Positions 885-22,447 of a stretch of DNA of 28,252 bases are shown piece after piece. A program made the translations under genes and the position numbers. Location of the stretch: the IMG/VR virus record IMGVR_UViG_3300037067_017589; one strand, 5' to 3'. The notes beneath the pieces are model-generated. The model had not been told where the DNA came from and did no database searches. It was given only the letters and a program-made list of their open reading frames with translations. The DNA comes from an uncultured virus (IMG/VR IMGVR_UViG_3300037067_017589). Its lineage: Duplodnaviria; Heunggongvirae; Uroviricota; Caudoviricetes. How positions within the stretch are numbered: position 1 is the first letter of the stretch; each line of letters begins with the position of its first letter.

Positions 885-3212
885 ATGGTTTGTGATCCAT
901 CAAAAAATAGTATAGACATTATAGTTGGTCCTGGACCACATTTACCTGGTATGGGCGATCCTTTTTCTATTCCAAAAATACCATTTCCTGATGTAAATCT
1001 ACCATTTGGACCTGAAGATTTATTAGATTTAATGGAAAGATTATTTGCATTACTTCCTACAGGTATTAGACTTGATGTAAATTTTGATGATTTTTCAAAA
1101 TCAGCATGGGATGCTATAGCAAACTTATTAAATAAACTAGCACCATTTCTTGCTTTTTATAAATTTATACAAGCACTTCTTAATATTATTTTATGTATAA
1201 TTGATATTGTTTGTGCTCTTATGAATCCATGGTCAACTGTAAAGGCTGTAAAACGTTTATTTAAAACATGTTTACCAGCATTTTTAGCTTTATTTCCTTG
1301 GCTCGCTTTAATATTAATGATTTTAGCTTTAATATTATTATTAATAGCATTAATAGAATATATAATACAAAGAATTATTGATTATATTAAACAATTAATA
1401 GCAAATATTATAGTATTAGTTGATGCTATACATAAACATGATGAAGATTCAATCTTAAAATGCATACAAAAGATGTCAAATCTAATATGTTTATTAGAAC
1501 AATTAATGGCTATTTTATTAGCAGTGGGTGCATTATTTGCAATAATAAGACCATTAATGGATATTGGTGGTCGTGGAGTATGTGCTAGGGGTAGTGGAGG
1601 TGGAGATCCTGAAGATGTGCAACAAGCTCTTGGTATTTGTTGTACAGAAGATTTTTGTCCAGATTTTATATCAAATTATAGTCCGGACGGACCAAGATCT
1701 GAAACTGGTCGTTTTATTTATCAACGACAACTTAATACTGTAATTCCTTCTGAATTTTCATTTTTAAGTGTTAATAGTTTATCACCATTAAGACCACAAC
1801 GTTTTCAATTTATTGATGATAATCCACAAGGATTTAAATTTTTAGATATTATTACTCCATCACCATCTGGATTTACATATTGGCCAGAAGGTGAATCATA
1901 TGATAGTACTGCTAATACTTTTAGAGTTCCATATTTATTAGATATGAATGTTGGAGTAAACCCTAGTCTTTTTGGAAATCCAGCAGATTTAGATGGATAT
2001 AGAAAATTTAATATTAGAGATCTTATTGTAAGATATAAACCAACCCAATATCCTTATCGATGGGATAATCAAGTAGATAATACTATTACTTCAGGAAGTA
2101 TATTTATTGGTGGTGGAAGTGTTTGGGAATTTGATACTACAACAGCAGATGGGTATAAACAATATTTTATTAATGGAAAACCTGCAACATTAGAGACATT
2201 TTTTGGTAAAGAAGCTATATCCAGCTCGATTCCAAGTATTGATGATAGTGATTATATATATGATATTTCATATAATTTTAGGTATGTTCACGAGGTTTTA
2301 ATTGATAGGAAATTAATAACACTTATGTGTCAACCTGATTTAGCGATAGAATCTGCTGTTTTTAATGCTGAGTTTAACGATTTAAGAAGTGTTTTTGATA
2401 AAGTTGGAGAATTACCTAATATTGGTACTTTAAATCCTGATAGAAAAAGTGGAACTGGTACTGTAGGAACAATTGCTGCAGCATTAGAAAAATTTAGAAG
2501 TGCTATTAATGAAGAATCAGCTAAAGAATTTCAAAATACAACAGTAACAGCATTAAATGATTTAAGAAATGATTGTACTGATTTTTATTGTCGTGCAGCA
2601 ACAGCTGCAGCAGATAGATTTAATAGTGATTTTGAAATATCAACAGATTTACAATTTGTTAAAAAAGATATAGATGTTACTATTCGTTTGAAAGATAAAA
2701 GTGGAACTTTATTAACAGCTGGTATTACAGCTGAAATTGCAAACTGTTTATCAGGAATTGTAACGGCAATTCCAACATTTGGCAAAATATCTGAATTTGT
2801 ATTTGATGGTTATAATAACTTTATTGCTACTTTAACAAGTGAAACTGCTGGTAAAGGAGAATTGACGGCGTATATAAAAGAAGAATCTATTAGTAAAGTT
2901 ATAAATCGAGAGTCTATTAATGAACAAAGTTCTATAATTGAAAAGATTTTAGAATATGAATTTGTTGATGCTACTTCTATTATACATTCATATGCTGATG
3001 GTTATGGTCCAATTATTGATGGATTAGTACCCGTATATATTGATAATAATGGTAATACTGTTTATGGAAATGTTGTTGGTAATAATATTGAAATTACTGA
3101 TGGTTTTGGAAATATTACTAGAATTCCGATTAATGAATTTAAATTTATTCCGTTTGACGGAATTAACAAGATTCGTTTTAGTAATCAAGATATATCAAAG
3201 GATAAGTCATAG
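885..3212 (+). CDS. 775-aa virion-associated protein: Pro-rich N-terminus, long hydrophobic helices, C-terminal Big_1/invasin-type Ig-like domain
   Basis: AGGA RBS upstream. Hydrophobic stretch LPAFLALFPWLALILMILALILLLIALI. Ig-like pattern VTIRLKDKSG...TFGKISEFVFDGYNNFIATLTSETAGKGELTAYI at about 2660-2876. Confidence 0.6.
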   Translation: MVCDPSKNSIDIIVGPGPHLPGMGDPFSIPKIPFPDVNLPFGPEDLLDLMERLFALLPTGIRLDVNFDDFSKSAWDAIANLLNKLAPFLAFYKFIQALLNIILCIIDIVCALMNPWSTVKAVKRLFKTCLPAFLALFPWLALILMILALILLLIALIEYIIQRIIDYIKQLIANIIVLVDAIHKHDEDSILKCIQKMSNLICLLEQLMAILLAVGALFAIIRPLMDIGGRGVCARGSGGGDPEDVQQALGICCTEDFCPDFISNYSPDGPRSETGRFIYQRQLNTVIPSEFSFLSVNSLSPLRPQRFQFIDDNPQGFKFLDIITPSPSGFTYWPEGESYDSTANTFRVPYLLDMNVGVNPSLFGNPADLDGYRKFNIRDLIVRYKPTQYPYRWDNQVDNTITSGSIFIGGGSVWEFDTTTADGYKQYFINGKPATLETFFGKEAISSSIPSIDDSDYIYDISYNFRYVHEVLIDRKLITLMCQPDLAIESAVFNAEFNDLRSVFDKVGELPNIGTLNPDRKSGTGTVGTIAAALEKFRSAINEESAKEFQNTTVTALNDLRNDCTDFYCRAATAAADRFNSDFEISTDLQFVKKDIDVTIRLKDKSGTLLTAGITAEIANCLSGIVTAIPTFGKISEFVFDGYNNFIATLTSETAGKGELTAYIKEESISKVINRESINEQSSIIEKILEYEFVDATSIIHSYADGYGPIIDGLVPVYIDNNGNTVYGNVVGNNIEITDGFGNITRIPINEFKFIPFDGINKIRFSNQDISKDKS

Positions 3213-3220
3213 GTGTATTT

Positions 3221-4918
3221 ATGGTAGATGCAACAAGTTCTATTGGTGAAATTCAAGAAGAGAGTGCATTAGATGCTCAAGATGCTGTTGATATTGATAT
3301 TGATGTTTTAATAAACAAATTTATAAAACCAATAGAAAATTATCGTAGTAAAAGTTCACCAAATGTTAAAATGCCATTTGATAGTCTATCAAATGATATT
3401 GTTTCGGCAAATCCTAATATACCTCAGGAAAGTAGAGCTCATGCTTTTTATAGAATTTTAGGATTACCAGCAATTGAACCTAGTGGTAGATTTTATAATA
3501 CAGGATATACTGGAAAAAATAAAATAACACTTTCAACTGATGATAGGGCTCTTCATAATAATATTAATAGTAAAATTCCAGAAAATGTTAAAAATGCAAT
3601 TTCAAAAAGAGAATCATCTTCTAGGGATAGATATGGTAAATTTTATACTGCAAATTCAGATTCTTCTATTTATAGTATAGCATTAGCCGTTCCAAATGGA
3701 ACAAGATTATTTATGTGTATGGATAAAAATATTGATGCATTAAATAATTTTGATAAACAAACAGTAAAAATTCCAGAAAGAGCTAAATTTATAAAGACAA
3801 GATATAAGAAAAATGATGGTTCTGATATTGAACAAACATATGATAGTGTAGAACATATTCTTAGACCATTTATAACTGATCCTGTTATTTCTGAAAAACT
3901 AAAACCATCTTCAGGTAAATCAAGTGTTATGGTTGGAGTGCCATTTTTAAATAATAAAGATTTAGAACATGAAAGAGGAAAATATATAAAGCGTCCAGGA
4001 ATTGAATTAATATTAAGATTAAGATTACGTCAACAAAACATCATACAAAACAATAATTCTACATTTCAACAATCAATAACAACTTACGAAGGAGTTATTT
4101 CTATTAATAAAAAAAGAGAAATTGCTGCGATACTTTCTAATACAGGGGTTAATGATGTTGATATAGATCGTGTTTTAAAAGGAACATCTTATCTTGAATT
4201 AAATATTTTAGATGATTTTGTTAGAAGTTTTAAGGGCATTATAAGTGCTTATATGGAATGTTTAGAAACAGTTGAACGTATAAGCAAACAGATTGTTTGG
4301 ACACCATTATGTGATGAAGGTGGTCCTGAATCTGGAACAACTATAACAACTGGTTTTGTTAAACCAGTTGCTTTTAAAGATAGTTGGGAATTAGAGCGTA
4401 GGATTACCCAATTAGAGGCTAAAAATTTATTTGCTACAAATCAAGTTGAATTAGGAGATGGATTATCTTATGGAGATTTTACAATTCCTTTTTCTCAAGA
4501 ATTATCAAAAACGTTTAACAAACAAATACAAGAAGAAAAAAATAAAAGATCTAATCTTGAAGCTGAGGCAAGTTCTGCTTTAAGTATAATTGAATATATT
4601 TCTGGTGAAGTTAGCGGATTAGGATTAATAGATATATTTGCAATATATATGGCAATGTGGTCCGTAGATATTACAGTGTTACTTAATTTAATAGATGATG
4701 CAGCTATACAGCGATTATACGAAATCAAATCATTAAGAACGAATGAAGTAATTAACAGAAAAAATAATACTGGTGAAGCTGTTAAATATTATAAAGAATT
4801 TGAAGAAAGAATTATGAGCATTCTTTCGTATGCAGATAAGTTATATGTTAGAGCACAAGGATCACTTACTGATAGTGAAGGTGGTGATGTTTCAAGGGAT
4901 ATTGGAACTTTCTTTTAA
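3221..4918 (+). CDS. 565-aa hypothetical protein, probably structural (baseplate region)
   Basis: Long ORF, AGGTG RBS-like sequence overlapping the upstream stop, located within the baseplate gene run. No motif recognised. Confidence 0.65.
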   Translation: MVDATSSIGEIQEESALDAQDAVDIDIDVLINKFIKPIENYRSKSSPNVKMPFDSLSNDIVSANPNIPQESRAHAFYRILGLPAIEPSGRFYNTGYTGKNKITLSTDDRALHNNINSKIPENVKNAISKRESSSRDRYGKFYTANSDSSIYSIALAVPNGTRLFMCMDKNIDALNNFDKQTVKIPERAKFIKTRYKKNDGSDIEQTYDSVEHILRPFITDPVISEKLKPSSGKSSVMVGVPFLNNKDLEHERGKYIKRPGIELILRLRLRQQNIIQNNNSTFQQSITTYEGVISINKKREIAAILSNTGVNDVDIDRVLKGTSYLELNILDDFVRSFKGIISAYMECLETVERISKQIVWTPLCDEGGPESGTTITTGFVKPVAFKDSWELERRITQLEAKNLFATNQVELGDGLSYGDFTIPFSQELSKTFNKQIQEEKNKRSNLEAEASSALSIIEYISGEVSGLGLIDIFAIYMAMWSVDITVLLNLIDDAAIQRLYEIKSLRTNEVINRKNNTGEAVKYYKEFEERIMSILSYADKLYVRAQGSLTDSEGGDVSRDIGTFF

Positions 4919-4965
4919 CTTAACGTGCAAGAAGTCCATTTCCTTTAGATGAGGAATGAATTGCC
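4915..4965 (+). mobile_element. Orphan IS200/IS605-type left-end copy
   Basis: TTAACTTAACGTGCAAGAAGTCCATTTCCTTTAGATGAGGAATGAATTGCC closely matches 28045-28095, which directly precedes tnpB. No tnpB follows this copy. Confidence 0.75.
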
Positions 4966-5024
4966 GTATGTTCATTTATATTATTTTTTTTTACTAATAG
5001 TTCGATATATTTAACTGGAGTAAA

Positions 5025-5456
5025 ATGTCATTTGATTTAAAACTTATAGCTGGGGATTTGATAATAAAAAATGGTGATTTGGATATAGTTGAAGGATCTG
5101 ATAAACTTGTTCAAGATGTTTTAAAACTTATTAGTACTCCATTAGGTTCAAATCCATTTTTTCCAGCTTATGGTTCTCCAATAAGCAAGGCTTTAATTGG
5201 AAAAATTTATGAACAAGAATTTTTAGAAGATATTGCTACACATCAATTAAAATCAAGTATTGAGAGATTACAACAACTTCAATTAGAACAATTAAAACAA
5301 AATCAAGCTGTTACACCAGATGAACAAATTGCAGTTATTGAAAATATAAAAGTTTCTCAAGCTCGTAATGATTCTAGATATTATTTAATATATTTAACAG
5401 TGATATCTAAATCTTTTCAAAGAATTCCAATATCATTTGGTATTGATACGTTTTAA
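5025..5456 (+). CDS. gp25-like (GPW/gp25 family) baseplate wedge / sheath-initiator protein
   Basis: GGAG RBS. Pattern DLKL..GDL...NGDL..VEG.DKL.QD..K...TPLGS.PFFP.YGS is characteristic of gp25/gpW proteins. 143 aa, immediately before baseplate J. Confidence 0.85.
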   Translation: MSFDLKLIAGDLIIKNGDLDIVEGSDKLVQDVLKLISTPLGSNPFFPAYGSPISKALIGKIYEQEFLEDIATHQLKSSIERLQQLQLEQLKQNQAVTPDEQIAVIENIKVSQARNDSRYYLIYLTVISKSFQRIPISFGIDTF

Positions 5457-5500
5457 CATAATGTGCAAGAAGCCATTATTTTTAGGTTAGGGTAGTTCAC
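5453..5500 (+). mobile_element. 48-bp IS605-derived mini-element (left-end start, degenerate hairpin, right-end GTAGTTCAC)
   Basis: TTAACATAATGTGCAAGAAGCCATTATTTTTAGGTTAGGGTAGTTCAC, near-identical to 20648-20695. Confidence 0.75.
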
Positions 5501-5569
5501 TTAACAGTGCATTTTTTTGTATTATTTGAGTTGATGGATATATATTAATATAATATTTAAGGACAAACG

Positions 5570-8500
5570 ATGGTACGAGTTCGAACTGCTAATGATATAG
5601 TTCTAAGTATATTAGATTTTTATAGAACTGCTATACCTTTACTTGATTTAAAACCAGGAGAAGTAGGTAGAGATCTTTTTGTTGATGGACAAGCTGTTCA
5701 AATGTCTCGTTTATACGAAGAATTATTACATATTCAAAATAAACAATCTTTATTATTATCATTAGGTTCTGATATAGATGCTCTAGCTTCGAATTATGGC
5801 GCACCTCGTAAAACAGGTTCAAAATCAAGAGGTTTAGCTCTTTTAACATTTAATGAAATTGAATCTGATATACCAATTAAAAAAGATGGTTTGGTAATAG
5901 CTTCTAATGGAATGTCGTTTGCAGTAGTTACATCTACTACAGTTTTATATGCTAACAAGAACACATATAGAGCAACGGCTTCCAAGAATCGTGCAGCTTT
6001 AGATTTTGTTGGAATTAGTGATGAATATGCGATTGAAGTATTAGTGGTATGTGCAACTACTGGTTCTGGTGGAAACATTTCTAGATATTCTTTAAAGAAT
6101 ACAACTATAGCTGGAGTATCTAGAGTTACAAATGCAGCTTCTTTTGGTGGAGGATCTCCATCTGAGAGTGATTCTGCATATAAGCGTAGAATTTTAGGAA
6201 TATTTAGTGGTGCTAATACAGGTACTGAAACAGGTTATAAAAATATAGTTTTAGCAGACCCTGATGTAATTGATGCAATTGTAGTTGGACCTGGTGATGT
6301 TTTAATGACTAGAGATGGTACGGATGTATACACAGCTGAAGATGGTACAAAAACAATTATATCAGAAGGAACTGGTGGAAAAGTAGATATATATATTTTT
6401 GGTTATCGTCTTACAGAAATAATTGATAGTTTTATTTATTTTGATCATAGTAATAAAGACGATCCAACTGATATATCAAATGACTTTGTTCTTGGACAAA
6501 TAGATGGTGATGAAAATAAAACTGTATCTAGAAGAAGAATTGACAATCTGTTAAATCAAGAATTACCAAATCAACCTGTAACAAGTATCATAGATGTTTC
6601 AGGATCTTCTAGTGGTTCTAATTTTAAACTAAAGAGTATAGATACAATTGGAAGAATATCTGGTAATTATGAATTAGTATTTGATAATGGAGCTTATGCT
6701 GGCAGTGTTTGGGGATTTGATCGTTTACGTTGGATTGATAATCATGTAAGAAATTTATTAGAAGATATTACCAAAGGAAAATTTAATAGTCAAGATCCTA
6801 CTGGTTTTTCTGATGTGTCTGAAATTAAAAATGTACAACAATCATTACAAATTATAAATGAAAATAGTAGATTATTATCAAATAATAGAGCTTATATTCA
6901 ATTATCACATTCTCCAGTTAATTCTGTAAGTAGAGTTTTTAATTTTACAACTGGAGAAAGATATATTGTTTCAAATCAAAACCCTGATGGTGGTGATCAA
7001 AATACAACTGGACGTATTTTAATATCTGGAAGTACTTTACCATCTATAAGTGATATTTTACAAGTAGATTATACATGGTTATTTGATTATAGTCCACATT
7101 GGGATTTTGATAATAAAGTTAATTCTTTTAATATTAGAAATGTAGGTGATAGTATAGATTGGGGCTATTCTAATAATATTAGAAGAGAAGAAACAACAAT
7201 ACAATCAGAAGGTGTTAGTAATCAAAAAGTAATATATGTTACACATGATATAAATTCAGTTGTTAATGTTAATAGATTTACAACACAGGAAGAAGTAAAC
7301 ATTACTTTAGTTAGTAATCGTCTTGCAGTTATTGTTGAATCTGTTGTATTAAATGTAATATCTATAATTAGAGATAGTGACAATGCAGAGCTTTATAACA
7401 CAGTTAATAATGATGGAAGTTTTAGTGCATTTACAATATTTTTACCTACAAATACTATTGGTGAAGTTGGCGATGGATATTTAACAGTTAAGTATAATGC
7501 TGAAGATAAGTTTACACAAGATGGTGTTAGTGGAAGTTTTAATGCAAATAAGATTACATTACCAGCTAACACAGATGCTTCTGATGGTTATTTAGTTGAA
7601 GTAAATTATTTAGCTGATACAAGACAATTGTTATCATCTGTATTATTATCTAATTTACCAGTTACTAGAAATGGAAATGCTTTTTCTATTAATAATAGTA
7701 ATTTTATTACGGGAACACAACCAACAACACATATTTATTCTTATGGAAATATTATTCAGAAAAATTTGAAATTAGCACCATCTAGATTAAAATTAACACT
7801 ATCAGGTTCTATTTCTCCTGGTGTATTAACTATTGCTGGAACAACAATGCAAGGAATTATAGAAGGTGTATTTGTAGCAAGTGCTAATGGTTTAACTCAA
7901 AATTTATCGTCATTAATTAAAACTGCATTATCTTTAACAAGCAATCAAACGATACCATTAAATGTTAATATTATTAAATTGGTTAAATTTGAAAAAGTAC
8001 AAATTAATTCTAATAAAGATGTAATTGCTGTTGAACATGAATATGATACTTTTGGTTATGAAATTAAAAATAATGATTTTGCAAAATTTGAATCATTAAA
8101 GAATACTACTTTAACTAGTGTACAAATTAAACTACCAAATACTATTAATAATAATACAATTGTACCAGTTGTTGGAGATGCTTTTAGAGTAACATTTTAT
8201 ATTGGAACTATAAATAGTCCAGAATCTGGTTATACAGAAACTGAAAGTATATCATTTACTAAAAGTGGAACACTTTATACTCAAAAAATATTTGCATTTA
8301 TAGATTCTATTTCTAAAGCTAGTGGATTTATTTCTGGTGAAAATACATCTACATTATCTATAGCTCCACAAAACCAACCAGCACAAGGAACTAGATATTC
8401 ATCATATTATGATTATTTAGCACCAAAACCAAATGAAAGAATTACAATTAGATATAATCAAAATCAAATTATTAATGATAATACATTTGCAATAGCTAGT

Positions 8501-8842: not shown

Positions 8843-8934
8843 TATATTTTATTAAAATTTTGTATTTCACTATTGATAATTTTCCCAACGGATATATTAA
8901 CATAATATAGATATCTTTTAATAGAGAATTTTTA

Positions 8935-11900
8935 ATGGCTAATCTTAGAATACTAAACATTAATGCAGCTGATAGTAGAACTATAAAGGTTAGATTTTCT
9001 GATCCTTTAGCATTAGATATTAATTCATCAAATATTCAAATATTATCTGAGATATTTAATGTTCCAGATATAGAAATTGTTAGTGTATCAATTTTAGATG
9101 ATATACTTGTTATAAACACACTTCCGCATACACCATTTTCACGATACAATGTAATTTTTTCATCTACAAATTCTGTAACATTTAGAAGTTTAGATGAAAG
9201 TAAATTTTTATTAGAAGATAGTAGAAATAATACTATTAAAATATTAGGTGCTGAAAACGATTATAATCCAACAAGAAATATATTTATTGATTATCTTGGT
9301 GGACAAGATAGTGTATACGATTTATCTCGTGAATCAAATATTAGAAAATTTCTTAATCAAACATCTGATATGATTAACAGATGCAAATATGATATAGGAC
9401 AAGCTAAAAATGCTAATTATCTAGAACTGTTAATACAAGATGAGAGAAAGGTACGTAGATATGGTCCTTGGGATAGATTAAATCAAGAAGGTGCATTTGA
9501 AGTAGTTAGAGTTGGGCGAGAACCAACTAACACATCTATATCTACTTCAATGTTATTTGATTCATTTCCTTCAAATCCTATTTCTTTACAAACTGAAACT
9601 ATAACAGGTGAAGAATTAATTTTAGGAATTGGAAAGGGAACATATGATGATTTAGTATTAACACTTAATAGATATCCAATTACTAAATTGAATAGTGTTC
9701 AAATAAAATATTCTAATGGAGATGTATTTGATTATGAAATAAGATCATATGGATATCAAATACAAGATCCTAAATATGATACTTCTTATGCTAGAAGATA
9801 TATAACACTAGAAAATAATCAAATAAAATTAAGCGATAATCTTAAAAATGATCCTTCTTTTGTATTACCTGGCGGACAAGATATTATTATTGTTTCTTAT
9901 GAATTTAAATTTCTTGGTAAAATAATAGGAGCTAATACTGTAGAAGTTGTAGAAGTTATAGAAGTAGTACGTGAATGTGCTCCAGCATTATCTGTTGTAT
10001 TTTCATTACAAAACGCTCCAATTGTAACTTCTGGAGATGTTATATCTACATATGATGGAGTTGAATTTTTAGATCCTTATTCAATAACTCCATTTATAAA
10101 TACACATTCGGCTTTTACTGTTGAATTACCTTATCGTGAAGGTGGATTACCAGCACGACCTGGAGAATATTCTATTGATTATGAAACTGGACGTGTATAT
10201 GTTTATGGAGCTATAGATAATGATGGAACTGGAGATTTTCCTCCAGTTATGAATTATTATAGTAGAAAAATATATAACAGTCGTTTAGATTATACTTATG
10301 TAGAAGAATTTGTAGATGTGGTAGCTTCACCTCTTAGATATTTAATTGGTAAAACAGCAAAAATTAATTATAATTATGAATTAACGTTTGTGCCTGGTAT
10401 TGATTATGAAGCTAATGTTCATATTGAAAGTCGTAATGAAAGAATTGAAAATAAATTAGTTTCCTTAGATTCTTTTTATACAAAACATGCACCTATTACA
10501 GATGTGTTTCGTATTTATAATGAGACTACTGGTGAAATTTATTCATTAAGAAGATTTACTGATAATAAAATATTTTTTGATTCTAGAACACCGCCAAGAA
10601 TTGGAGATATAAAAAGAGAACGAGTAGAATTTACTAGTGTTTTTAGTGAACAATTAATTTTAGAAGAAGAATTAATAAATCTTAGTAGTATTAGAATTTT
10701 AAAAATTAGATTACAAAATCAAAATATAATTGGATGTACAGATGATGTAATTGGTTCAAGTTTTAATTCTAGTGTTAATTTTAGTGATACTGATGTATTC
10801 AGTCAAGAAATTTATTATGATTCTCAAGAATTAACAGAAGAAATAAATATTAATAGAATTAGAATTGGTTTTTATCAAATTAATTACAGAGAAGGTATTG
10901 TATATGTTGGAGTTTTTAATAATCAAAATTTAAATCTAGGAACTATTAATTATAAAAAACCTATAATCAGTCCACAAAATTCTCATGTTATATCAGTTTC
11001 AGAATTATATACTAGTATTAATGTTAATTTTGGTATATCATTATTATTAAATTATGAAAGTTTTGATGAAGGAGAAATTATTCCAACTCCTATATCATTA
11101 TATTTTTCTGATGAGCGTTATACTGATAATAATCCAGAACAACAATACATATATGATAGCAATCAAATTATTGTAACTAATGATATTAAAAGTTTACGTG
11201 GAATTTATGATGCATTTGATTTAAACAATAATGACAATCCTATAAATTTTGTTGAATCAGCTACATTTGAATCAAATATAATAACTTTAAATAGTATTGG
11301 TATTGCTAAGACAGAGCAACTAACTATTGATGGAGATTTAAAAATTGTTGTAACTACTATTGCTCCAGAAATTGAAATTGGAATTGTTAATAGTATAATT
11401 AGAATAAGTGATGGATATTCTTTTACTGATAGTATTAATTCTATTACAGATAATACAATTTGGTTAGATAGTGATTGTGGTATTGTAGTCGGTGATATAG
11501 TGACGGTTTTATATACCGTTGTAATGCAAGGAGGAGCAACTCCTATAGTAGATTATAATAAAGGAGATTTGTTTATTGATTATTCATATTTGCTTGATGA
11601 AATTTTAGTAACATATGAGTGGGGCGATAATGTTATTGATTTTAGACAGAGTCGTACATTAATTGAAAATGATGTATATTATGTAACTTATAAAGTTGGA
11701 GCTTTGAGAAATTCATTAACAGAAAATTTTGGATCTTTAGTTCAAATTGAAGAATTACAAGTATTTGATGAAGAATTAGATAGAGAAATATATAGAGATA
11801 TTTTACAAGGTGCATTACAAACATTTACTCAAGGACCAACTGCAGCTGCTATTAAACAATTAATAGCAAGTGTAACTCATATAGACCCTAGAATAAGAGA

Positions 11901-14900
11901 AGCTGAATTTTGGTCTCTTAGTGTTAGTTATTTGAATAAAGCAATATCAGAATTTTTAGGAATTACTTCTTTATCTGCTGGTATTTTTGATTATGGAGTG
12001 TCTGTAGTTAATTCTGGTGATGGTGTTACATTTCCAATATCTAATAACCTTAGATTAGAGGAAGGAACTTTAGAATTATCCATTATTCCTAATTGGGATG
12101 GTTTAGATAATGATGCTACATTAACTTTTGAATTATATAGAGATGGTTATGAATTAGAATCTTCTAATATTTTTATTGGTGCTAATAGTTTTAATCCTGA
12201 AATTGAAGATGGTATATTTTCATTAAATAGAAATGATATTAAAAATCCAGAGGGTGTTCCAGCGGCTATATTTAGTTCAGTTGGTATATTTATTTATTAT
12301 GATCCAGATAATATACAATGGAAAATATTAGCAAAAGATGTACCAGGACCTGATGGTTATATATATTCAGGAATAATTACAACTTCTGGTGATTTTTACG
12401 ATGTAAAATTTATACAAAATTTAGGTGAAGAAACCGATGTATTAAGATCTGGAATTAAATCAGTAGAATTTGAATTTCGTTTAGACGGATATGATTTAAC
12501 AAGTCCAGATGGATATGATAGTGATAGTTTAATTACTGGATATTCATTTGATGGTATTCAATTTATGTCAGATGATGATCATTATTTATTTGATTTTGGA
12601 ACAAATGAGAATCAAAATAGATTTTCTTTATATAAAGATGGAAGAGGGTATTTAGTATTTGAAGTTTGGGACCGTGGTGGTTTTTCTCATATACAACCAG
12701 ATAGAAGATCTGTTTATCAAGTTAGTGCAGATGTACAAAATTGGAAAGCAGGACAAATTCATAATATAGCAATTAGTTGGATTTTAAATTCATCAGATCG
12801 TAGAGATGAAATGCATTTATTTGTAGATGGATTGGAAACTCCAAACAATACTCGTTATGGTAACATTCCATCTATAGTATCTACTGAAAGATTTAGAACT
12901 ATTGTTCCAGAACAAGTTGTTGGTATAGTTCCAGCAAAATCAATTGTTGGAATTGATTTAATAACAGTTCAAGGTGATGAATATGTACATTCTACTACAA
13001 TTAATTTTCAGGCACAGGGAATTGTGCCTACTGATCATATAGAAATATTAGAGCAAGGATTCAATACATATACAATATTAAATGTTGATAATTATACATT
13101 ACAATTATCAAGTCCTATGCCAGCAACATTAAATAATGCCAAATTTAGCGTTAATCCATATTCATTTGTTGTAAATACAGAAATTGATATTTATAAAAAT
13201 ATTGGAGTTTTTATATTAAGTGATGGATATGAAACGGAAATTCCAGGAATTAGGGCTGATATTCCTTCATATTCAATTGAAAGAAATGCTTTAAATCAAA
13301 GAATATTAAAAGTTCTTGGTAATGCTGAAACTGGTGATATTATTTTAATTAAAACATTTGGATTAAATCATAGAAGATGTAGAGATATTTCTTATTTATG
13401 GAGTGATGGATCTATTTTAAAGACAGGGTTACCATCTCCAATAAATCTAGATGATGTTATTATTAAACCTATAATTCTTCCATTGGTACCAATTGGTTTT
13501 AATAATTCTATATTTATAGATGGTTATTATTTAGCTGATTTAGATAATTATTCTCAACCTAGTACAGTATTAATTGACGGTTATCATTTTGAATGGGATG
13601 GTTATTTACCAAATGAGGGTAGAATATTAGAAGTAAGAATAACTGGAGATAATGTAGATTTAGAAGTTGGTGTAAATGTTACTATAAATGGTTTATCATC
13701 TATAGTAGATGGATATGATGGATATTCTGAATCTTTAATTTTTACTTCACCAATTAAGCAATTTACTCAATGTAAATGGATGGAAATTTCATCTATAATA
13801 GTACAAGCCACTCCAATAGATGGATATAATTTGTTAGATGGATATTTAAATAGTACAGCAATTGAAATAAAAGAAAAATATTCTATCACAGAACCAAATG
13901 GTAATAATTATTATCCAGTTATTAGATATGCATATACTACACAATTTGGAATAAGTTTAGAAGGAGATGGATCTGACATTGTAAGTGATTTATTAGGATT
14001 CTTTTCAATATCTGAAGTTGGACATTTGTTAGAAATTACAAGTCCTTCAAATATAAAAGGCATTTACAGTATAGAAGAAAAAATAGATAATACTAGTATT
14101 AGATTAGATCGTGTTGTTGGAAGTTCTTTTTCAAATGTTACATATACTTGTTATAATATAAGTATTGGGCGCAGTGGTTTTCAAAACGGATTCTTTTTCT
14201 TAGAATTAGCTGGTTTTCACAATGCTGAATATAAAATTCCTCCAGGTTGGTATGAATTTGATTATGCTACATATCTAGAAGTTCCATTTAATCCATTAGA
14301 TCAGGTTGGAATAATTGGAAATAATATTACATTACAAAAGCCAGCAAGAGCAATTTTAGATGAGTTTAGAATTCTAAATAGGCAATTAACTGATACAAGA
14401 GTTGGTGAATCAATTAGCATAAATAATTATTCTATCACAACTGATGCTAATAGAACATCTCCTTTTATTAAAAATTCTGATACATTAGCATTATTTAATT
14501 TTAATAGTGTGCCTTTAATTAACAATAGTGATGTGTATAAATTTGCTAATAAAGAATATATTCAATCAGGAGAAAGTGTAAATACAAAATTTGGACATAG
14601 TATTGTTATAAAAGATAAAGGTTTAGTATTTAATAATGAAGGTTTATTAGATACTTCTAATGAAGGTTTAATAGAATTTTGGATTAGTCCAAGATTTGAT
14701 ACTTATAACGACCCAAATATTAGAATTTATTTTGATGCAGCTGCTAATATTGTCGAAGAAGTAATCAGTATTACAAAAGGAAAAGTGAAAATTTCTGGTA
14801 AAATTGATAAAATTATATATGTTAGATTATCAAATGATACAAAATTACGTGGAATAGATTATTTTAATGGGGGATCTTTTGATACTGATGGAAATATAAC

Positions 14901-15675
14901 ATTAAAAACATCTTTACCTTTTCAAAATACTCCAGTTAAAGTAGCATATATACCTACAAACGTACAAGGAGATAGAATAGTTATTTCTAAAGATGGAGAA
15001 GGTTTTGTATGTTTAACAGTAACAGCACAAGGAAAAGAATTTCAAACAAGACAACCTATATTTTGGCCAAAAGATAGTTGGCATAGGATTAGAGCTTCAT
15101 TTAAATTTAACACTGCAGCAAATTTAGATGAGTTAAGATTGTTTATAGATGGTGAAGAAAGAGGAATAATATTATTTGGAGAAGGTGATTTGTTATTTGG
15201 GCAAGGTTTAATTTGGGGTCAATCTGCAGTTGGTGGGGTTACAAATAAAGTTTATATTGCTGATATAAACTTTACTGATACTATAATGCAATTTTCTTTA
15301 GGACAAGATTATGCTGGTAATTTTGGAGCAGAAGCACGATTTGATAATTTAAAGATTTCAAATAGGTCAATAGAACCTTTAATCATATCAGGACAACCAA
15401 TTGACGTATATTTCAATACAAATACAGAATTTATTTATCCATCTGTAGAAGATTCTTTTACTACATTTTTATTTAATTTTGATAATATTGTAGAAAAAAC
15501 AGAAGATTTTTCAGTAATACAAGATCCTATATATGGTATATTTAAATTTGATATTGATATCATTGATTCTTTTAACATAGTAACAGGTGATCAACGTATT
15601 CGTACAGTATTGGAAGCTTTAATTTATGCATTAAAACCTGCTGTTTCAAAAGTTGGAATACATTATATCACATAA
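8935..15675 (+). CDS. 2246-aa giant baseplate wedge protein (P2 gpI/T4 gp7-like core) with two LamG/concanavalin-like domains
   Basis: gpI-like core LTENFGSLV...YRDILQGALQTFTQGPTAAAIKQLI (~11710-11877) and C-terminal LIYALKPAVSKVGIHYI. LamG signatures EGTLELSIIP, HNIAISW...HLFVDG, ILDEFRILNRQL and EGLIEFWISP, WHRIRASF...LFIDG, RFDNLKISNR. Confidence 0.75.
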   Translation: MANLRILNINAADSRTIKVRFSDPLALDINSSNIQILSEIFNVPDIEIVSVSILDDILVINTLPHTPFSRYNVIFSSTNSVTFRSLDESKFLLEDSRNNTIKILGAENDYNPTRNIFIDYLGGQDSVYDLSRESNIRKFLNQTSDMINRCKYDIGQAKNANYLELLIQDERKVRRYGPWDRLNQEGAFEVVRVGREPTNTSISTSMLFDSFPSNPISLQTETITGEELILGIGKGTYDDLVLTLNRYPITKLNSVQIKYSNGDVFDYEIRSYGYQIQDPKYDTSYARRYITLENNQIKLSDNLKNDPSFVLPGGQDIIIVSYEFKFLGKIIGANTVEVVEVIEVVRECAPALSVVFSLQNAPIVTSGDVISTYDGVEFLDPYSITPFINTHSAFTVELPYREGGLPARPGEYSIDYETGRVYVYGAIDNDGTGDFPPVMNYYSRKIYNSRLDYTYVEEFVDVVASPLRYLIGKTAKINYNYELTFVPGIDYEANVHIESRNERIENKLVSLDSFYTKHAPITDVFRIYNETTGEIYSLRRFTDNKIFFDSRTPPRIGDIKRERVEFTSVFSEQLILEEELINLSSIRILKIRLQNQNIIGCTDDVIGSSFNSSVNFSDTDVFSQEIYYDSQELTEEININRIRIGFYQINYREGIVYVGVFNNQNLNLGTINYKKPIISPQNSHVISVSELYTSINVNFGISLLLNYESFDEGEIIPTPISLYFSDERYTDNNPEQQYIYDSNQIIVTNDIKSLRGIYDAFDLNNNDNPINFVESATFESNIITLNSIGIAKTEQLTIDGDLKIVVTTIAPEIEIGIVNSIIRISDGYSFTDSINSITDNTIWLDSDCGIVVGDIVTVLYTVVMQGGATPIVDYNKGDLFIDYSYLLDEILVTYEWGDNVIDFRQSRTLIENDVYYVTYKVGALRNSLTENFGSLVQIEELQVFDEELDREIYRDILQGALQTFTQGPTAAAIKQLIASVTHIDPRIREAEFWSLSVSYLNKAISEFLGITSLSAGIFDYGVSVVNSGDGVTFPISNNLRLEEGTLELSIIPNWDGLDNDATLTFELYRDGYELESSNIFIGANSFNPEIEDGIFSLNRNDIKNPEGVPAAIFSSVGIFIYYDPDNIQWKILAKDVPGPDGYIYSGIITTSGDFYDVKFIQNLGEETDVLRSGIKSVEFEFRLDGYDLTSPDGYDSDSLITGYSFDGIQFMSDDDHYLFDFGTNENQNRFSLYKDGRGYLVFEVWDRGGFSHIQPDRRSVYQVSADVQNWKAGQIHNIAISWILNSSDRRDEMHLFVDGLETPNNTRYGNIPSIVSTERFRTIVPEQVVGIVPAKSIVGIDLITVQGDEYVHSTTINFQAQGIVPTDHIEILEQGFNTYTILNVDNYTLQLSSPMPATLNNAKFSVNPYSFVVNTEIDIYKNIGVFILSDGYETEIPGIRADIPSYSIERNALNQRILKVLGNAETGDIILIKTFGLNHRRCRDISYLWSDGSILKTGLPSPINLDDVIIKPIILPLVPIGFNNSIFIDGYYLADLDNYSQPSTVLIDGYHFEWDGYLPNEGRILEVRITGDNVDLEVGVNVTINGLSSIVDGYDGYSESLIFTSPIKQFTQCKWMEISSIIVQATPIDGYNLLDGYLNSTAIEIKEKYSITEPNGNNYYPVIRYAYTTQFGISLEGDGSDIVSDLLGFFSISEVGHLLEITSPSNIKGIYSIEEKIDNTSIRLDRVVGSSFSNVTYTCYNISIGRSGFQNGFFFLELAGFHNAEYKIPPGWYEFDYATYLEVPFNPLDQVGIIGNNITLQKPARAILDEFRILNRQLTDTRVGESISINNYSITTDANRTSPFIKNSDTLALFNFNSVPLINNSDVYKFANKEYIQSGESVNTKFGHSIVIKDKGLVFNNEGLLDTSNEGLIEFWISPRFDTYNDPNIRIYFDAAANIVEEVISITKGKVKISGKIDKIIYVRLSNDTKLRGIDYFNGGSFDTDGNITLKTSLPFQNTPVKVAYIPTNVQGDRIVISKDGEGFVCLTVTAQGKEFQTRQPIFWPKDSWHRIRASFKFNTAANLDELRLFIDGEERGIILFGEGDLLFGQGLIWGQSAVGGVTNKVYIADINFTDTIMQFSLGQDYAGNFGAEARFDNLKISNRSIEPLIISGQPIDVYFNTNTEFIYPSVEDSFTTFLFNFDNIVEKTEDFSVIQDPIYGIFKFDIDIIDSFNIVTGDQRIRTVLEALIYALKPAVSKVGIHYIT

Positions 15676-15688
15676 AGGTAATAAAATT

Positions 15689-18600
15689 ATGACTAGAACT
15701 GAAGTATCTAAAATTCAAAATCGTTGGTATGATGGTCAGAGAGTGGATCAAACAGATTTAATTGTTGAACAAGATAGAAATGTAAACACTGATGCATCTA
15801 TTATACAAAATCATTTTGGATCTGGTGTATTACCAGAATCTTTTATTCAAAAAATTATTTTTGATACACATAGTTTATTCCCAGATCAAGTGGCATTAGT
15901 AGCTTCTTGCGATTTAGATGGTACAGGATTACGTCCATTAATAGAATATTCAACAGATACTGTTTTAGGAAATCAATTAGAAGTTGAATTAACTGATTCA
16001 GATGATGATGGTTATATGAATGGAATTTCCACTGTTGGTGGGCGTTTTAGTAGTAAAGTTGCTATAATAGGTTTAGATTTTCAAGGTAATCTTCAATATG
16101 ATAGATTCTATTTTTATAGAAAAGAAAAACAAGTTACCAAAAAACATTATACTAAAATTTTATGCGTATTTCTTAATGATGTATATGGAAATAATAAATG
16201 TTCTCGTAAACTAGGTGGTAGAATTATAATAAGAGAAAGTAAGAGTTTTCAACTTTCTCGTGATTGTATTATGATTTCACAAGATGTAGAACCTAATCTT
16301 TTTTTTAGAGATTTAAGAATTTCAAATGTAATTGAAGGTATAGTAGGTGGTACAGTTGCAACATTATCACAAGCAATTCAGGCTGGAATAGGATCTGAAT
16401 ATAGTTTTGATGCATTAGATATAAATACTACTGTTAAAAGAGAAATTGAATTAACAACAAATGATGTTACAACACGTTTGGCACAAAAATTTTTAGCTAC
16501 AAGTAATAATATACAAAAGATAACATTATTACTTGGTATTAGAAGAGATGATTCAGTAAGTATAGATCATGTATTTGATTGGAGTGGTGATTTAATAGTA
16601 AATATTTATGAATTACAAAGTTCTGTTAGCTGTCCAACAGAACTTGTACCACAATTAGCAATTGAATTTGAGCCAAATCCAGAACCAATAACTCAACTTA
16701 GTATAAGTAAAGATACTTTAGAACAATATGGTTATATCTTAACCGATATTTTACAACCAGTTGATTTTGTATTTAACGGTTCTTTTATTGGTAGTACATC
16801 TAATGTTAAAATTATTCCTGGTAAATATTATGCTATTTCTATAAACAGATCTGGTGATTCAACAACAGGTATATTATTTACTGGTATAGGAAATAGTTAT
16901 TCTATAAATGATAGATTTTCAATATTTAGTGGAAATTGGACCGATGTATCTGAAGAAGATATGTGGTATCAAGTATGGACAGATACAGCAAAAGTATCTG
17001 ATGGTAAAGCATATGATGCTGGTCATGGTATAGATATTTTAAAAACAACTATAAATGAATTAGGAGTTGTAGTAGATTATTCATTTGATAATAATGTATT
17101 TATTGATAATGGACAAAATACATTAAATACAGCAATTATAGAAGCAATATTGGAGCAATCAGATCAAGAACAAGATGAAAGAACTGGTAATCCAGTATAT
17201 TCTCGTCAGAAATTTGAACCAAGTTTTAGTTTTGTAACAAATACAACATTAGCTACATTAAGAGAATCTTCAGATCCTTTAGTTATAGGATGTGCAAGAG
17301 ATATTAATGCTAAGAATAATATAGAAATTACTGGTGTGCAATATTATCCAGGATTAGCACGCGGAAACCATTATATTATTGTTAATCCAGATCCTAATAT
17401 AGAATCTCAACAATGGATTGGTAGTAAATTAATTCCAGATGATACTGGATGTGCTAGTTTAGATTATAAGATTGTTAGAATTAAAAGTTGTGTAGATGGG
17501 TATGGTGATGTTCTTGGAGATGGAATTATTGATGAATATGATATTGCAAGAGCAATAGAATTATTAGGACAATCTTTATCATTAATAACAACACAAGAAT
17601 TAATTAGAGATGGATATATTAGTACTCTTGAATTATTAAGAGCTGACGTAGATGGTGATGGATATATTACGTATTCAGATATAACAATTATTGAAGACTA
17701 TGTTAATCGTAGACGAGAAACGTTAGTTGTAGGTGCATCGAGTTTTACTCATATTGAAATTGAAGTTCAAAATAGTACAGGGAGATTTGATGGATATTAT
17801 ACTTGTAATAATTTAATAGCATTTGATGGTTACAATAATATTGCAGATCCTTCAACTTTAACAGATATTGAACTTAAATATTATGGTTATAATAATCTTC
17901 CTGATATTACACTTGATAATACAACAGCATTTGAAAGAGTTCCTTGGAATGCTGTAACATTTAAAATTAAGCCTATGCCTTTTTGGCAAGATTATCTTGT
18001 TCAGTTTAGCAGTGATGCAAGACAAGTTCCAGCAATATTTACTTACCCAACCAATTCTACTTCTTATATTAATAGTGAAACTGGCAGTTGTGCAAGCCTT
18101 GCTGAAATTTCAATATGTCAAGAAACTACAAGTATTGGCGGATCTTGTGTTTCTGGTAGAAATGATTTTTATATTCCTGATAATCTTATTATTGGTAAAG
18201 GACAAATTTTAAATACAAGTGGTTATTTATTTAAACAAGATTTAGAAATTCAAACAATTACTTTAGAATTACCACCACAAGTATTTTATGATGGTTATAA
18301 TTTGAATATATTTGAAAAATTAGTATATGATAATGATAGTGGTTTTACAAAATCCGGATATCGTGCAGCTAAATTTGCAGATTGTTCAACAGTTCAATCA
18401 GACGCTTTATTAATGAATCAAATTAGATTTGGTGTTGCTATTCAATCAATTTATCCAAGTTTAGATGGATATGATATAGATGGCTATGGTATAATTATTG
18501 ATAATACAATTGGTGTTAATATAGATCAGTCTACTGGAATATTAACATTGAATGTAAAAGATATTAGTTGTAACTCATTAATTCCAGAATTAAGAACAAA

Positions 18601-22138: not shown

Positions 22139-22445
22139 TATTACTAAAATTAGTAAAGTATGGAAATATGTAGTTAACCGTAGCAAAACTCCATACGATG
22201 TTTATATTGGAAGACCTTCAAAATGGGGATGTCCATTTGTATTTGAAGATGGTACATTAGGAAAGTTTCGTGTCGAAAATCGTTCAGAAGCAATTCTAAA
22301 GTATGAAGAATGGGTACGTTCTCAACCAGAATTAATAAAAGATATTAAACGAGAATTAAATAATAAAATTCTTGGTTGTTTTTGTTCACCAAAACTTTGT
22401 CATGGACATGTTTTGGCATGGATAGCAAATATAGAAGGTAAATAA
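22131..22445 (+). CDS. DUF4326 domain protein
   Basis: VVN.....YDVYIGRPSKWG.PF ... EL..KILGCFC.PK.CHG.VL. Confidence 0.85.
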   Translation: MFDITKISKVWKYVVNRSKTPYDVYIGRPSKWGCPFVFEDGTLGKFRVENRSEAILKYEEWVRSQPELIKDIKRELNNKILGCFCSPKLCHGHVLAWIANIEGK

Positions 22446-22447
22446 TA

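Follow-up and report, generated by a model that had tools for sequence, protein, structure and literature searches.

Background

In Bacteroidota, general protein O-glycosylation uses the motif (D)(S/T)(A/I/L/V/M/T/S/C/G/F), by which hundreds of unrelated proteins receive one glycan; the glycan contains fucose and its locus holds several glycosyltransferases (accessible text of PMC8698959). Virus-encoded glycosylation at atypical sequons (NTXT / NIPG) has been described for the capsid of the chlorovirus PBCV-1 (accessible text of PMC9614988). In the mycobacteriophage Che8, phage glycosyltransferases O-glycosylate the phage's own virion proteins (Freeman et al. 2023, cited in PMC13445384). Tyr O-glycosylation is known from S-layer proteins of Paenibacillus alvei and Thermoanaerobacter (PMC2943079), which provide a bacterial precedent for Tyr-O-linked glycans on a repetitive surface array.

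Here, we describe a subset of tail, baseplate and fibre proteins in an uncultured huge phage and its relatives that contains the tripeptide Asp-Gly-Tyr (DGY) about twenty times above chance. No report of a DGY motif was found in a literature search. As far as the accessible text of these sources describes the known systems, DGY shares three residues and a leading Asp with the Bacteroidota motif. There, however, the glycan is placed on Ser/Thr at position 2 and several residues are tolerated at position 3, whereas DGY is a strict word with Tyr at position 3 as its sole hydroxyl. The Bacteroidota system is also host-encoded and acts on exported proteins, whereas the DGY carriers are virion proteins assembled in the cytoplasm and their glycan is putative. 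Like PBCV-1, the phage is a large virus with its own sugar-nucleotide enzymes, glycosyltransferases and methyltransferases, where fucose and methylated sugars are a common theme, and decoration of virion proteins at sites off the universal sequon is observed in PBCV-1 and putative here. PBCV-1 differs in being a eukaryotic virus with N-linkage to Asn of the major capsid protein, while DGY offers a candidate Tyr acceptor on tail-side carriers. The Che8 target is a capsid protein, and the accessible text describes no tripeptide code over a dozen tail proteins. The S-layer systems rely on an extracytoplasmic oligosaccharyltransferase and few sites, and neither 'consensus' nor 'sequon' is named in the accessible text of PMC2943079.

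The DGY word in the window

The window, i.e. the whole stretch of 28,252 nucleotides that was analysed, contains the following features:

1..876, + strand: 3' part of a virion-module protein of 626 aa; no DGY among the 4 DG encoded in the window, nor among all 5 DG of the complete protein
885..3212, + strand: 775-aa virion-module protein; 4 DGY (residues 370, 422, 641, 705); window copy without a family match
3221..4918, + strand: 565-aa virion-module protein; DGY-free (0 of 2 DG)
5025..5456, + strand: gp25-like sheath initiator / baseplate wedge protein; DGY-free
5570..8842, + strand: Baseplate J-like wedge protein, 1090 aa; 2 DGY (residues 635, 672) in a C-terminal extension
8935..15675, + strand: 2246-aa protein 3' of baseplate J, by position a fibre or baseplate-distal protein; 13 DGY among 27 DG
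13519..13845, + strand: region of the 2246-aa protein where DGY is most dense (7 copies within 109 residues)
15689..18700, + strand: 1003-aa protein, or 1015 aa if started at the TTG of 15653; 9 DGY among 14 DG
17501..17707, + strand: dockerin type I domain in the 1003-aa protein; DGY at nt 17495 and 17609 flank or lie within it
18796..20037, + strand: FAD/NAD(P) Rossmann oxidoreductase, directly 3' of the last DGY protein
21428..23907, + strand: overlapping four-gene block, consisting of the next four entries
21428..22138, + strand: NanM-like sugar O-methyltransferase
22131..22445, + strand: DUF4326 protein
22448..23308, + strand: MJ1255/VC2487-type glycosyltransferase, conserved in the clade
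23305..23907, + strand: HAD phosphatase

The Baseplate J domain (PF04865) of the 1090-aa protein scored 48.1 bits against a curated cut-off of 21.1 (residues 69-243), and the protein matched the baseplate wedge subunit phrog_6 with an E-value of 4.4e-24. For the 2246-aa protein, a weak ConA-like match (Laminin_G_3) stayed under the cut-off, and the orthologue of the 775-aa protein in the relative G003 gave a weak match to Invasin_D3 (Ig-like).

Together, the four carriers contain 28 DGY in 5126 aa, whereas their composition predicts 1.24. This value agrees with the one to two copies roughly estimated in a preliminary description of this DNA, whose individual counts, seven-copy cluster, tandem strings (VDGYDGYS, LDGYDIDGYG) and five codon spellings were all reproduced. 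Shuffling each protein 2000 times gave 1.24 copies on average and never more than 7; the first-order Markov expectation of 6.88 is itself inflated by DGY. DGY is the most frequent tripeptide of the carriers, followed by ITL with 11 copies. Tyr follows 28 of their 59 DG (binomial p 5.6e-22), and Asp precedes 28 of their 42 GY (p 4.6e-22). No DGY was found among the 20 DG of the remaining 15 window ORFs, nor among the 14 DG of the 12 accessory ORFs (2764 aa), which had already been described as free of the word.

At the DNA level, GAYGGNTAY matches 29 times, always on the + strand, against 1.87 expected (maximum of 6 in 100 shuffles). All but one of these matches are in frame within the four genes, the exception being intergenic at 5533, and there are none in the other two frames of the coding sequence or in the 12 same-strand accessory genes. 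Besides the five codon spellings of the window, the relatives (37-45% GC) use others, including GC-richer ones. The frame and strand lock, the synonymous codons and the persistence in relatives of this GC range indicate that the protein word, rather than a DNA repeat, is under selection, as had been proposed from the window alone.

Exactness and distribution of DGY

On the contig of the window's own phage (G001), DGY occurs in 12 of 44 ORFs, with 64 copies observed and 3.06 expected. Enrichment is confined to the exact tripeptide: other words are at chance (observed/expected: NGY 4/3.45, EGY 1/2.18, DGF 5/2.83, DGW 0/0.63, DSY 4/3.18), and YGD gives 1/3.06. The carriers comprise the sheath, the baseplate J extension, large baseplate-distal and fibre proteins, and a small Ig-like protein. 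In the 12 carriers, 64 of 144 DG are DGY, compared with 0 of 22 in the 11 virion-module proteins outside this set (Fisher 9.4e-6). The 19 non-structural proteins also lack DGY, which makes 30 proteins free of it.

The relatives (G002-G009) show a coding-strand excess of DGY in 8 of 8 contig records. In the 120 listed homologues of the 1003-aa protein, 953 DGY were counted against 27.8 expected (4-11 each), while EGY (13 expected) and DAY (21 expected) were both absent from this family. The 127-aa family holds 134 DGY in 53 homologues, where 2.6 are expected. The major capsid protein and portal of G003 contain no DGY. As outgroups, two distant huge phages were used, phage G and LR745208. The tail module of phage G (13 proteins) has 2 DGY among 31 DG and is not enriched, and neither is LR745208 (22/36 matches versus 40/32 for the control).

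The flanks of DGY have background composition and provide essentially no context, in line with the unrelated flanks reported before. Pro never occurs at the +1 position of the 132 sites, although about 6 cases would be expected, and 26-27% of successive sites lie at most 12 residues apart. Self-BLAST of the four carriers revealed no internal repeats, and between carriers only one weak match was obtained (E 5.5e-7). With neither internal repeats nor shared flanks, the carriers give no sign of the repeated fold that, in the earlier proposal, would have spoken against a signal, and DGY is not the signature of a detectable repeated domain. In contrast, 6 of 12 DGY in the fibre paralogues of phage G occur in a repeated context ending in DGYWYVRG.

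Gain, loss and structural context of DGY sites

The eight orthologues of the 2246-aa protein contain 3-16 DGY each, distributed over 24 columns, of which 15 have DGY in at most two sequences. The alternatives at these columns are mostly of the form x-G-x (NGD, SGS, GGT, GGP, NGL), so that the gain of a DGY requires changes on both sides of the Gly. Many sites are gained at such turn positions or arrive with loop insertions, and DGY-repeat units make up loop expansions; the copies at residues 1548, 1555, 1592 and 1635, which belong to the densest cluster, are among those in lineage-specific insertions. Alignment of homologues therefore bears out the expectation that sites are gained and lost in loops, although the 1003-aa family has 9-11 recurrent sites, of which seven are kept in 94-118 of the 120 listed homologues, a pattern that a structural role would fit equally well. 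Where DGY is lost in this family, DG is often retained (DGT, DGV, DGI, DGE), and one column is stably DGF in 59 of the 120 listed homologues. Conservation of the Asp and Gly in DGY does not exceed that of other Asp and Gly.

The exposure of the sites that had been assumed earlier was addressed with one structure model and with the sheath. All four DGY of the 127-aa protein are placed in coil between strands in its predicted beta-sandwich (pLDDT 83.2). In the sheath relatives, 7 of 50 DGY fall into the conserved C-terminal core and the depletion from this core is not significant (p 0.115).

Phe accounts for 30 of 147, 0 of 17 and 0 of 4 replacements at DGY-Tyr columns (pooled 30 of 168) but for 332 of 542, 15 of 27 and 61 of 101 at other Tyr columns (pooled 408 of 670), a contrast with a pooled Fisher value of 1.8e-24 that is uncorrected for the kinship of the sequences. 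Phe is thus a rare substitute for the DGY Tyr, which does not behave like a packed aromatic residue but in a hydroxyl-specific or surface-like manner. This indirect evidence suggests an acceptor-like side chain, the conservative replacement of which is avoided.

For the dockerin domain (PF00404, a family with two Ca-binding loops) of the 1003-aa protein, which spans residues 617-685 in the 1015-aa form, the score was 29.2 bits and the cut-off 22.9, and dockerins were also retrieved in a PDB profile search at an E-value of 1.7e-6. In the alignment with PDB 4uyp_B, the DGY at nt 17657 (residues 657-659 of the 1003-aa protein) fits the EF-hand-like D-x-D-x-D-G Ca2+ loop of type I dockerins and occupies loop positions 5-7, where canonical dockerins have N-G-S or similar. 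The first dockerin loop also reads DGY in 38 of the 120 listed homologues. A Ca loop as the cause of all DGY was rejected, with only the copies at nt 17495, 17609 and 17657 in or at the dockerin and the other 25 lacking a D-x-D context.

Glycan genes and candidate readers

The window's own phage encodes a glycan-synthesis cluster of about 24 kb, including a GDP-sugar dehydratase and epimerases, GT2, GT4, GT10 and GT11 transferases, and methyl-, acetyl- and sulfo-transferases. In G001, G003 and G004, such a cluster is located directly 3' of a DGY-bearing fibre or baseplate gene. PF16363 and PF00535 exceeded their cut-offs in all three clade records that were long enough to test and in neither of the two outgroups. 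The preliminary description had suggested looking for enzyme genes that co-occur with DGY; these glycan genes show such a pattern, but with one clade set against two outgroups they amount to a single evolutionary contrast. Many other clade-core genes would give an equal pattern, such as the FAD/NAD(P) oxidoreductase, which has counterparts of 69-71% identity in G003 and G004 but none in phage G.

None of the transferase families recognised in Pfam scans is known to modify Tyr in proteins. The glycosyltransferase of the window (22448-23308) is a candidate reader of DGY, and an equally possible role is DNA modification; it lies amid nucleotide-metabolism genes (exonuclease, GP88 / nucleoside 2-deoxyribosyltransferase, radical-SAM). 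Phage glycosyltransferases that decorate DNA are described in the accessible text of 10.1101/2023.12.21.572611 and PMC13326640, and the enzymes of the glycan cluster could act on DNA instead. The relatives also encode a Pkinase-domain protein with a PP2C phosphatase, PARP, Macro and NADAR proteins, and two R2K ATP-grasp proteins, and two Sulfotransfer_2 proteins are present in the window's own phage.

Discussion

DGY is probably a lineage-specific short linear tag that is read in trans. Protein-level selection has introduced and maintained it, chiefly in loops of the carrier subset of virion proteins, and a folded reader would recognise the tripeptide. The most plausible form of this tag is a putative Tyr glycosylation sequon, which we put forward tentatively and at somewhat less than even chances. 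In that case, the reader would most likely be a transferase supplied by the glycan-synthesis cluster, the Tyr hydroxyl would receive its glycan in the cytoplasm, either ahead of assembly or in the course of it, and the outer tail would be coated with sugar as a result. Of the sequon suggested in the preliminary description, the exact word, the near absence of flanking context, the turnover of sites in loops and the poor exchange of the Tyr for Phe are now supported, while the modification and its enzyme remain putative. The choice of the dipeptide is also a point against a tag. Asp-Gly is chemically labile and prone to aspartimide formation, so that without protection of the site its use on a particle that must last is surprising.

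An enzyme would not be needed if DGY were a binding micro-motif, in which a Tyr on a tight Asp-Gly turn sticks to host surface glycans or proteins, or to Ca2+, and many such loops jointly give weak multivalent adhesion of the tail to the host envelope. The clustered sites in loops that expand by DGY repeats, the failure of Phe to substitute for Tyr, the genuine Ca-loop position in the dockerin, and the carriers themselves (fibre, baseplate and Ig-like proteins) are all compatible with this. Nevertheless, we regard it as unlikely. A tripeptide alone cannot form a binding site, and the folds in which the copies lie are unrelated and their flanks at background. In generic Tyr-rich binding loops, NGY, SGY, GGY and DSY should be frequent as well, but none of them is enriched. 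Metal binding, which had been proposed alongside the sequon, can apply to at most the 2-3 of 28 sites whose surroundings match the acidic D-x-D-x-DG pattern of Ca loops, and fails for the rest.

Everything that argues for a selected, exact tag applies just as well to a reader other than a glycosyltransferase, namely a Tyr kinase, sulfotransferase, ADP-ribosyltransferase or ATP-grasp ligase from phage or host, or a non-enzymatic docking partner such as an assembly or decoration protein. Candidate genes exist in the relatives (Pkinase, PARP, R2K ATP-grasp) and, as Sulfotransfer_2, in the phage itself, but the latter is a carbohydrate-type family and lies within the glycan cluster. Such a reader seems less probable still than a binding motif.

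The same low probability is given to a purely structural habit, i.e. an Asp-Gly turn capped or stabilised by Tyr that became fixed as one favoured turn in beta-rich virion proteins. DGY does occur in turns after beta-strands, the alternatives at its columns are mostly x-G-x, many sites are strongly conserved, DG often survives the loss of DGY, and one column is stably DGF. However, turn propensity leaves the enrichment of the exact word unexplained, with NGY, DGF and DGW at chance and EGY and DAY absent in the 1003-aa family. It also fails to account for the tandem DGYDGY, the loop expansions by DGY repeats and the avoidance of Phe, for the homologous tail proteins of phage G and LR745208 that lack the motif, and for the 0 of 22 DG in the 11 other virion-module proteins.

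Finally, a strand-specific DNA site (packaging, regulatory or restriction/modification) with the peptide as a by-product would fit the 29 of 29 matches on one strand and the whole-record excess on the coding strand only, but this reading is already effectively refuted by the lock of 28 of 29 matches to one reading frame of four genes, the empty accessory genes on the same strand, and the five codon spellings with GC-richer ones in relatives, and is given next to no weight.

Returning to DGY as a glycosylation tag, the full picture would be a clade of huge phages that hangs a complex glycan on the DGY Tyr of tail, baseplate and fibre loops by means of its own glycan factory of about 24 kb, with GDP-sugar synthesis and fucosyl-, methyl-, acetyl- and sulfo-transferases; taken as a whole, this is possible but rather doubtful. 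If true, no glycosylation sequon directed at tyrosine would have been described before it, nor a virion-wide glycan coat on the tail of a tailed phage.

Enrichment of the DGY motif in baseplate proteins

The Asp-Gly-Tyr (DGY) motif is a real feature, under strong selection and specific to its lineage. The window, with a GC content of 27-30 % and its genes in one long plus-strand array, belongs to an uncultured huge phage with related IMG/VR contigs of up to 392 kb. Among cultured phages, its closest relative is Bacillus phage G, whose baseplate J core is 30 % identical.

Features of the window (all in the plus-strand array)
First 18.7 kb, +: contractile-tail baseplate module, by family matches, in the order 626-aa protein (3' part), 775-aa protein, 565-aa protein, gp25-like sheath initiator, 1090-aa Baseplate J protein, 2246-aa protein, 1003-aa protein with a dockerin type I domain
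17501-17707: the dockerin type I domain, within a phage baseplate/fibre protein and kept in the 120 homologues listed
3' of the module: FAD oxidoreductase, DEDD exonuclease, then a four-gene overlapping block of sugar O-methyltransferase, DUF4326 protein, MJ1255/VC2487-type glycosyltransferase and HAD phosphatase
Beyond the block: GP88/nucleoside 2-deoxyribosyltransferase protein, radical-SAM enzyme, two tRNA genes
24163-24420 and 24380-25546: overlapping ORFs in different frames sharing one GP88-like domain, the second fused to a nucleoside 2-deoxyribosyltransferase domain
26357-27319: radical-SAM gene
27825-27985, window end: tRNA genes Arg(TCT) and Thr(TGT), only Thr(TGT) reaching the Rfam gathering score

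The preliminary description had counted 4, 2, 13 and 9 copies of DGY in the 775-aa, Baseplate J, 2246-aa and 1003-aa proteins, and these counts were reproduced together with their coordinates, codons and tandem strings. Composition gives 1.24 expected copies, within its estimate of 1-2, against 28 observed. A first-order Markov model expects 6.88, DGY never exceeded seven copies in 2000 shuffles, and it is the most frequent tripeptide of the four proteins. The enrichment survives correction for DG frequency, with Tyr following 28 of 59 DG (p 5.6e-22) and Asp preceding 28 of 42 GY. The remaining 15 ORFs of the window contain 20 DG and no DGY. The earlier view that selection acts on the protein rather than the DNA also holds: all 29 matches to GAYGGNTAY, the DNA pattern encoding DGY, are on the plus strand and 28 are in frame, so a DNA-level signal is excluded. 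The one remaining match lies between genes in AT-rich DNA and is due to chance.

The split GP88-like ORFs could reflect a frameshift or two genes, and together with the radical-SAM gene they suggest a nucleotide or DNA modification module. No informative relatives were found for the FAD oxidoreductase adjoining the last DGY gene, and no solved relative for the glycosyltransferase. Equivalence of DUF4326 with phrog_1017, a neighbour in the related record G003, was checked and rejected. Promoter and terminator scans of the AT-rich window were uninformative.

Carriers, non-carriers and exactness of the motif

The 76.6-kb contig of the same phage contains 64 DGY against 3.06 expected, carried by 12 of 44 ORFs of at least 100 aa, with ORFs called simply as the longest frame from the first ATG.

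DGY carriers of the 76.6-kb contig besides the four window proteins (DGY count)
1635-aa protein with a head-decoration-like C-terminus: 12
1538-aa protein: 9
536-aa protein: 5
127-aa Ig-like protein: 4
Tail sheath: 3
990-aa, 271-aa and 233-aa proteins: 1 each

No DGY was found in the 19 non-structural proteins (6378 aa) or in the 11 other virion-module proteins (5621 aa) of this contig; the latter include the tube-initiator-like, gp25-like, 565-aa, 626-aa and 909-aa proteins and a 1715-aa protein at the tape-measure position. Relative to DG, this amounts to 0/22 in these 11 proteins versus 64/144 in the carriers (Fisher 9.4e-6), where inner and outer protein labels are based on family matches and gene position. 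In G003, a 91 %-complete relative, 68 of 89 DGY fall within 15 virion-module proteins, and none in the major head protein, portal or terminase. A second DGY group of this record lies distant from the main virion module (20784-33892, L014) and comprises proteins of 305 aa (DGY at 3 of 5 DG), 384 aa (two DGY) and 278 aa (two DGY), next to a subtilase, a protein with an ice-binding-like adhesin domain and an R2K ATP-grasp protein.

The motif is exact. Near-cognates on the contig occur at chance (observed/expected: NGY 4/3.45, EGY 1/2.18, DGF 5/2.83, DGW 0/0.63, DSY 4/3.18, YGD 1/3.06). Residue classes from -6 to +6 are at background with two exceptions: charged residues are scarcer just before the motif, and Pro never directly follows it across the 132 sites of two genomes, where about 6 would be expected. 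The possibility, raised in the preliminary description, that DGY marks conserved sites of a repeated fold does not apply, since self-BLAST found no internal repeats in the four window proteins and the flanks are at background. A contrasting case is provided by the fibre paralogues of phage G, in which 6 of 12 DGY lie inside a repeated context ending DGYWYVRG; these four large paralogues (gp424-gp427, L171) share a common repeated domain with this conserved motif.

Cellular genomes were scanned for three close DGY, which returned at least 120 stretches, and 61 of the 80 loci examined had an in-frame triple. All 61 are low-complexity tandem repeats (e.g. DGYYD, DGYLWS, DGYTWA), a phenomenon distinct from the scattered motif of the phage, and such loci were rejected as a lead to a host or reader. 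Long DGYLW[ST] runs occur in proteins of about 530-570 aa from Woeseiaceae and Steroidobacteraceae MAGs (L044, L056, L077, L089, L099, L100), and DGYYD runs in lipoprotein-like ORFs of Flavobacteriia (L049, L085, L103, L110, L112).

Site turnover and local structure

Alignments of homologues, proposed earlier as a check on gain and loss, reveal both conservation and turnover. Of the sites in the 1003-aa family, seven are present in 94-118 of the 120 homologues listed, three in 38-69 and about 19 in 1-12. Eight orthologues of the 2246-aa protein have 3 to 16 DGY each; among their 24 DGY columns, 3 are near-universal and 15 occur in at most two sequences. Alternative states at these columns are mostly x-G-x (NGD, SGS, GGT, GGP, NGL), so a new DGY requires both residues flanking the Gly of an existing turn to change. 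Several DGY specific to the window's 2246-aa protein come in with insertions. In the 127-aa family one DGY is invariant, and one member has a loop grown into a DGY-repeat run. Another relative has a direct tandem array of four DGY codon triplets (G008:C1:17586-17621, DGYDGYDGYDGY).

Replacements of the DGY Tyr are usually E, T, V, L, N, S or D. Phe accounts for 30/147, 0/17 and 0/4 replacements at DGY-Tyr columns of three families, versus 332/542, 15/27 and 61/101 at other Tyr columns (pooled Fisher 1.8e-24, uncorrected for shared ancestry). This rarity of Phe suggests that the DGY Tyr behaves as a surface residue rather than a packed aromatic, and that its hydroxyl or exact identity matters.

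The sole structural model obtained, that of the 127-aa protein, is a beta-sandwich (pLDDT 83.2, pTM 0.74) in which all four DGY are predicted in coil between strands. The matches that a fold search returned for it were all weak and Ig V-like (TM 0.32-0.38), and a PDB profile search with the family returned nothing below E 1. In the sheath relatives, 7 of 50 DGY are located in the conserved C-terminal core, all of them in a single column. Avoidance of this core is statistically unsupported (p 0.115), and the core DGY count against a simple picture of outer domains only.

One DGY of the 1003-aa protein occupies positions 5-7 of the dockerin Ca loop, which read N-G-S in dockerins of solved structure. 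This placement favours a direct adhesive or Ca-binding micro-motif, a reading that is nonetheless unlikely overall. In dockerin-type loops Ca is bound by the backbone of position 7, and by analogy with the family the side chain at this position, here the Tyr, would point outward.

Candidate readers

The record nearest the window, G001 (106 kb), holds most of it with 100 % identity along the compared stretch. Upstream of the contig region holding the window lies a cluster of about 24 kb.

Gene order of the cluster in G001
Start: fibre with S74 chaperone domain (3 DGY in 3 DG)
Next: GT4, four GT2, GT10, GT11, two Sulfotransfer_2, one GNAT
Then: two FkbM methyltransferases, sugar C-methyltransferase, GDP-mannose 4,6-dehydratase, two epimerases
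End: tubulin, UvsW helicase

Comparable clusters in G003 and the related record G004 open with a GT4 of this kind, immediately following the 1003-aa orthologue. GDP_Man_Dehyd and Glycos_transf_2 score above cut-off in 3/3 clade records long enough to test and in 0/2 outgroups (phage G and LR745208), a comparison of one clade with two outgroups that fits a phage-encoded glycan coat. Homologues of the window glycosyltransferase number 59, with identities of 46 % or more, and five of them share record fingerprints with the homologue lists of the DGY proteins; orthologues are present in G003 and G004 and none in phage G. It is located among nucleotide-metabolism genes, and phage glycosyltransferases also hypermodify DNA, according to the accessible parts of two sources (10.1101/2023.12.21.572611, PMC13326640).

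DGY could instead be the site of another modification or of a docking partner. Possible readers of this kind are encoded by G003, namely a kinase with a PP2C phosphatase, PARP, Macro and NADAR proteins, and R2K ATP-grasp proteins; the reading itself is quite improbable.

Several further features of these records were observed. The glycan cluster is immediately followed by a tubulin/FtsZ-family gene whose position is PhuZ-like (L174:1124-2494 in G001, L172:16853-18229 in G004). Intein/LAGLIDADG insertions occur in the ribonucleotide reductase large subunit (76.6-kb contig and G004) and in a UvsW-like helicase (G004), and the 720-aa GDP-mannose dehydratase of G004 is likewise interrupted, matching over two stretches; genes with such insertions or interruptions are at L008:6851-10771 (76.6-kb contig), L173:6396-10397, L173:146-2146 and L172:11184-13343. 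G003 (392 kb; L013, L017) also encodes two CRISPR-Cas sets (Cas3, Cas5d, Cas7 and Csd1; a second Cas3 with a DevR-like protein), TnpB/Cas12f-like genes, a major-vault-protein-like gene, Ku and an Apyc1-like anti-Pycsar gene.

Distribution in the clade

Orthologues of the four window proteins are still DGY-enriched at about 60-65 % identity and 37-42 % GC. A coding-strand excess of GAYGGNTAY over a reversed-pattern control was found in all eight related records tested (66 v 4, 106 v 26, 51 v 4, 20 v 6, 16 v 3, 31 v 5, 57 v 6 and 50 v 7). Among the more than 300 homologues of the 1003-aa protein, the 120 listed have 4-11 DGY each, in total 953 versus 27.8 expected, and 53 homologues of the 127-aa protein have 134 versus 2.6. 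The best 40 sheath relatives have 50 versus 5.2, and short distant sheaths have zero. No DGY excess was found in the 485-kb uncultured phage LR745208. The tail module of phage G, with 2 DGY in 31 DG over 13 proteins, is at chance, and this phage was rejected as a cultured model, its sole DGY-dense region being the repeated fibre-domain signature. A purely structural turn habit, which would suit the Gly turns at which DGY arises, has little probability, since a universal turn propensity does not explain a lineage-specific pattern.

Interpretation and significance

DGY probably serves as a short linear tag that is displayed on loops of a specific set of virion proteins and read in trans. The most plausible concrete form of this tag, put forward tentatively, is Tyr O-glycosylation, in which the phage's glycan cluster would O-glycosylate the Tyr of DGY. 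As far as the accessible parts of the sources describe them, the closest known systems are an Asp-led three-residue O-glycosylation motif in Bacteroidota (PMC8698959), atypical sequons with virus-encoded glycan machinery in chloroviruses (PMC9614988), virion glycosylation in mycobacteriophages (Freeman 2023, as cited in PMC13445384), and S-layer glycans linked to Tyr (PMC2943079). From each of these four, on the same partial basis, DGY appears to differ in acceptor, strictness and targets. No published description of a DGY motif in phages was found in the full-text literature covered, which lies largely outside subscription journals.

Even if purely structural, an exact tripeptide fixed at about 20-fold above chance in a dozen proteins unrelated to one another stands out as an unusual instance of sequence selection within a single lineage. 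If DGY is read, it provides a simple searchable code for the outward-facing proteins and loops of an uncultured huge phage, which also predicts where the carrier proteins are modified or contacted. If the glycosylation proposal is true, glycobiology would gain a new type of sequon, directed at Tyr, and tailed phages would build their own glycan coat, as giant eukaryotic viruses do, with a bearing on host recognition, particle stability and evasion of immunity or defence.
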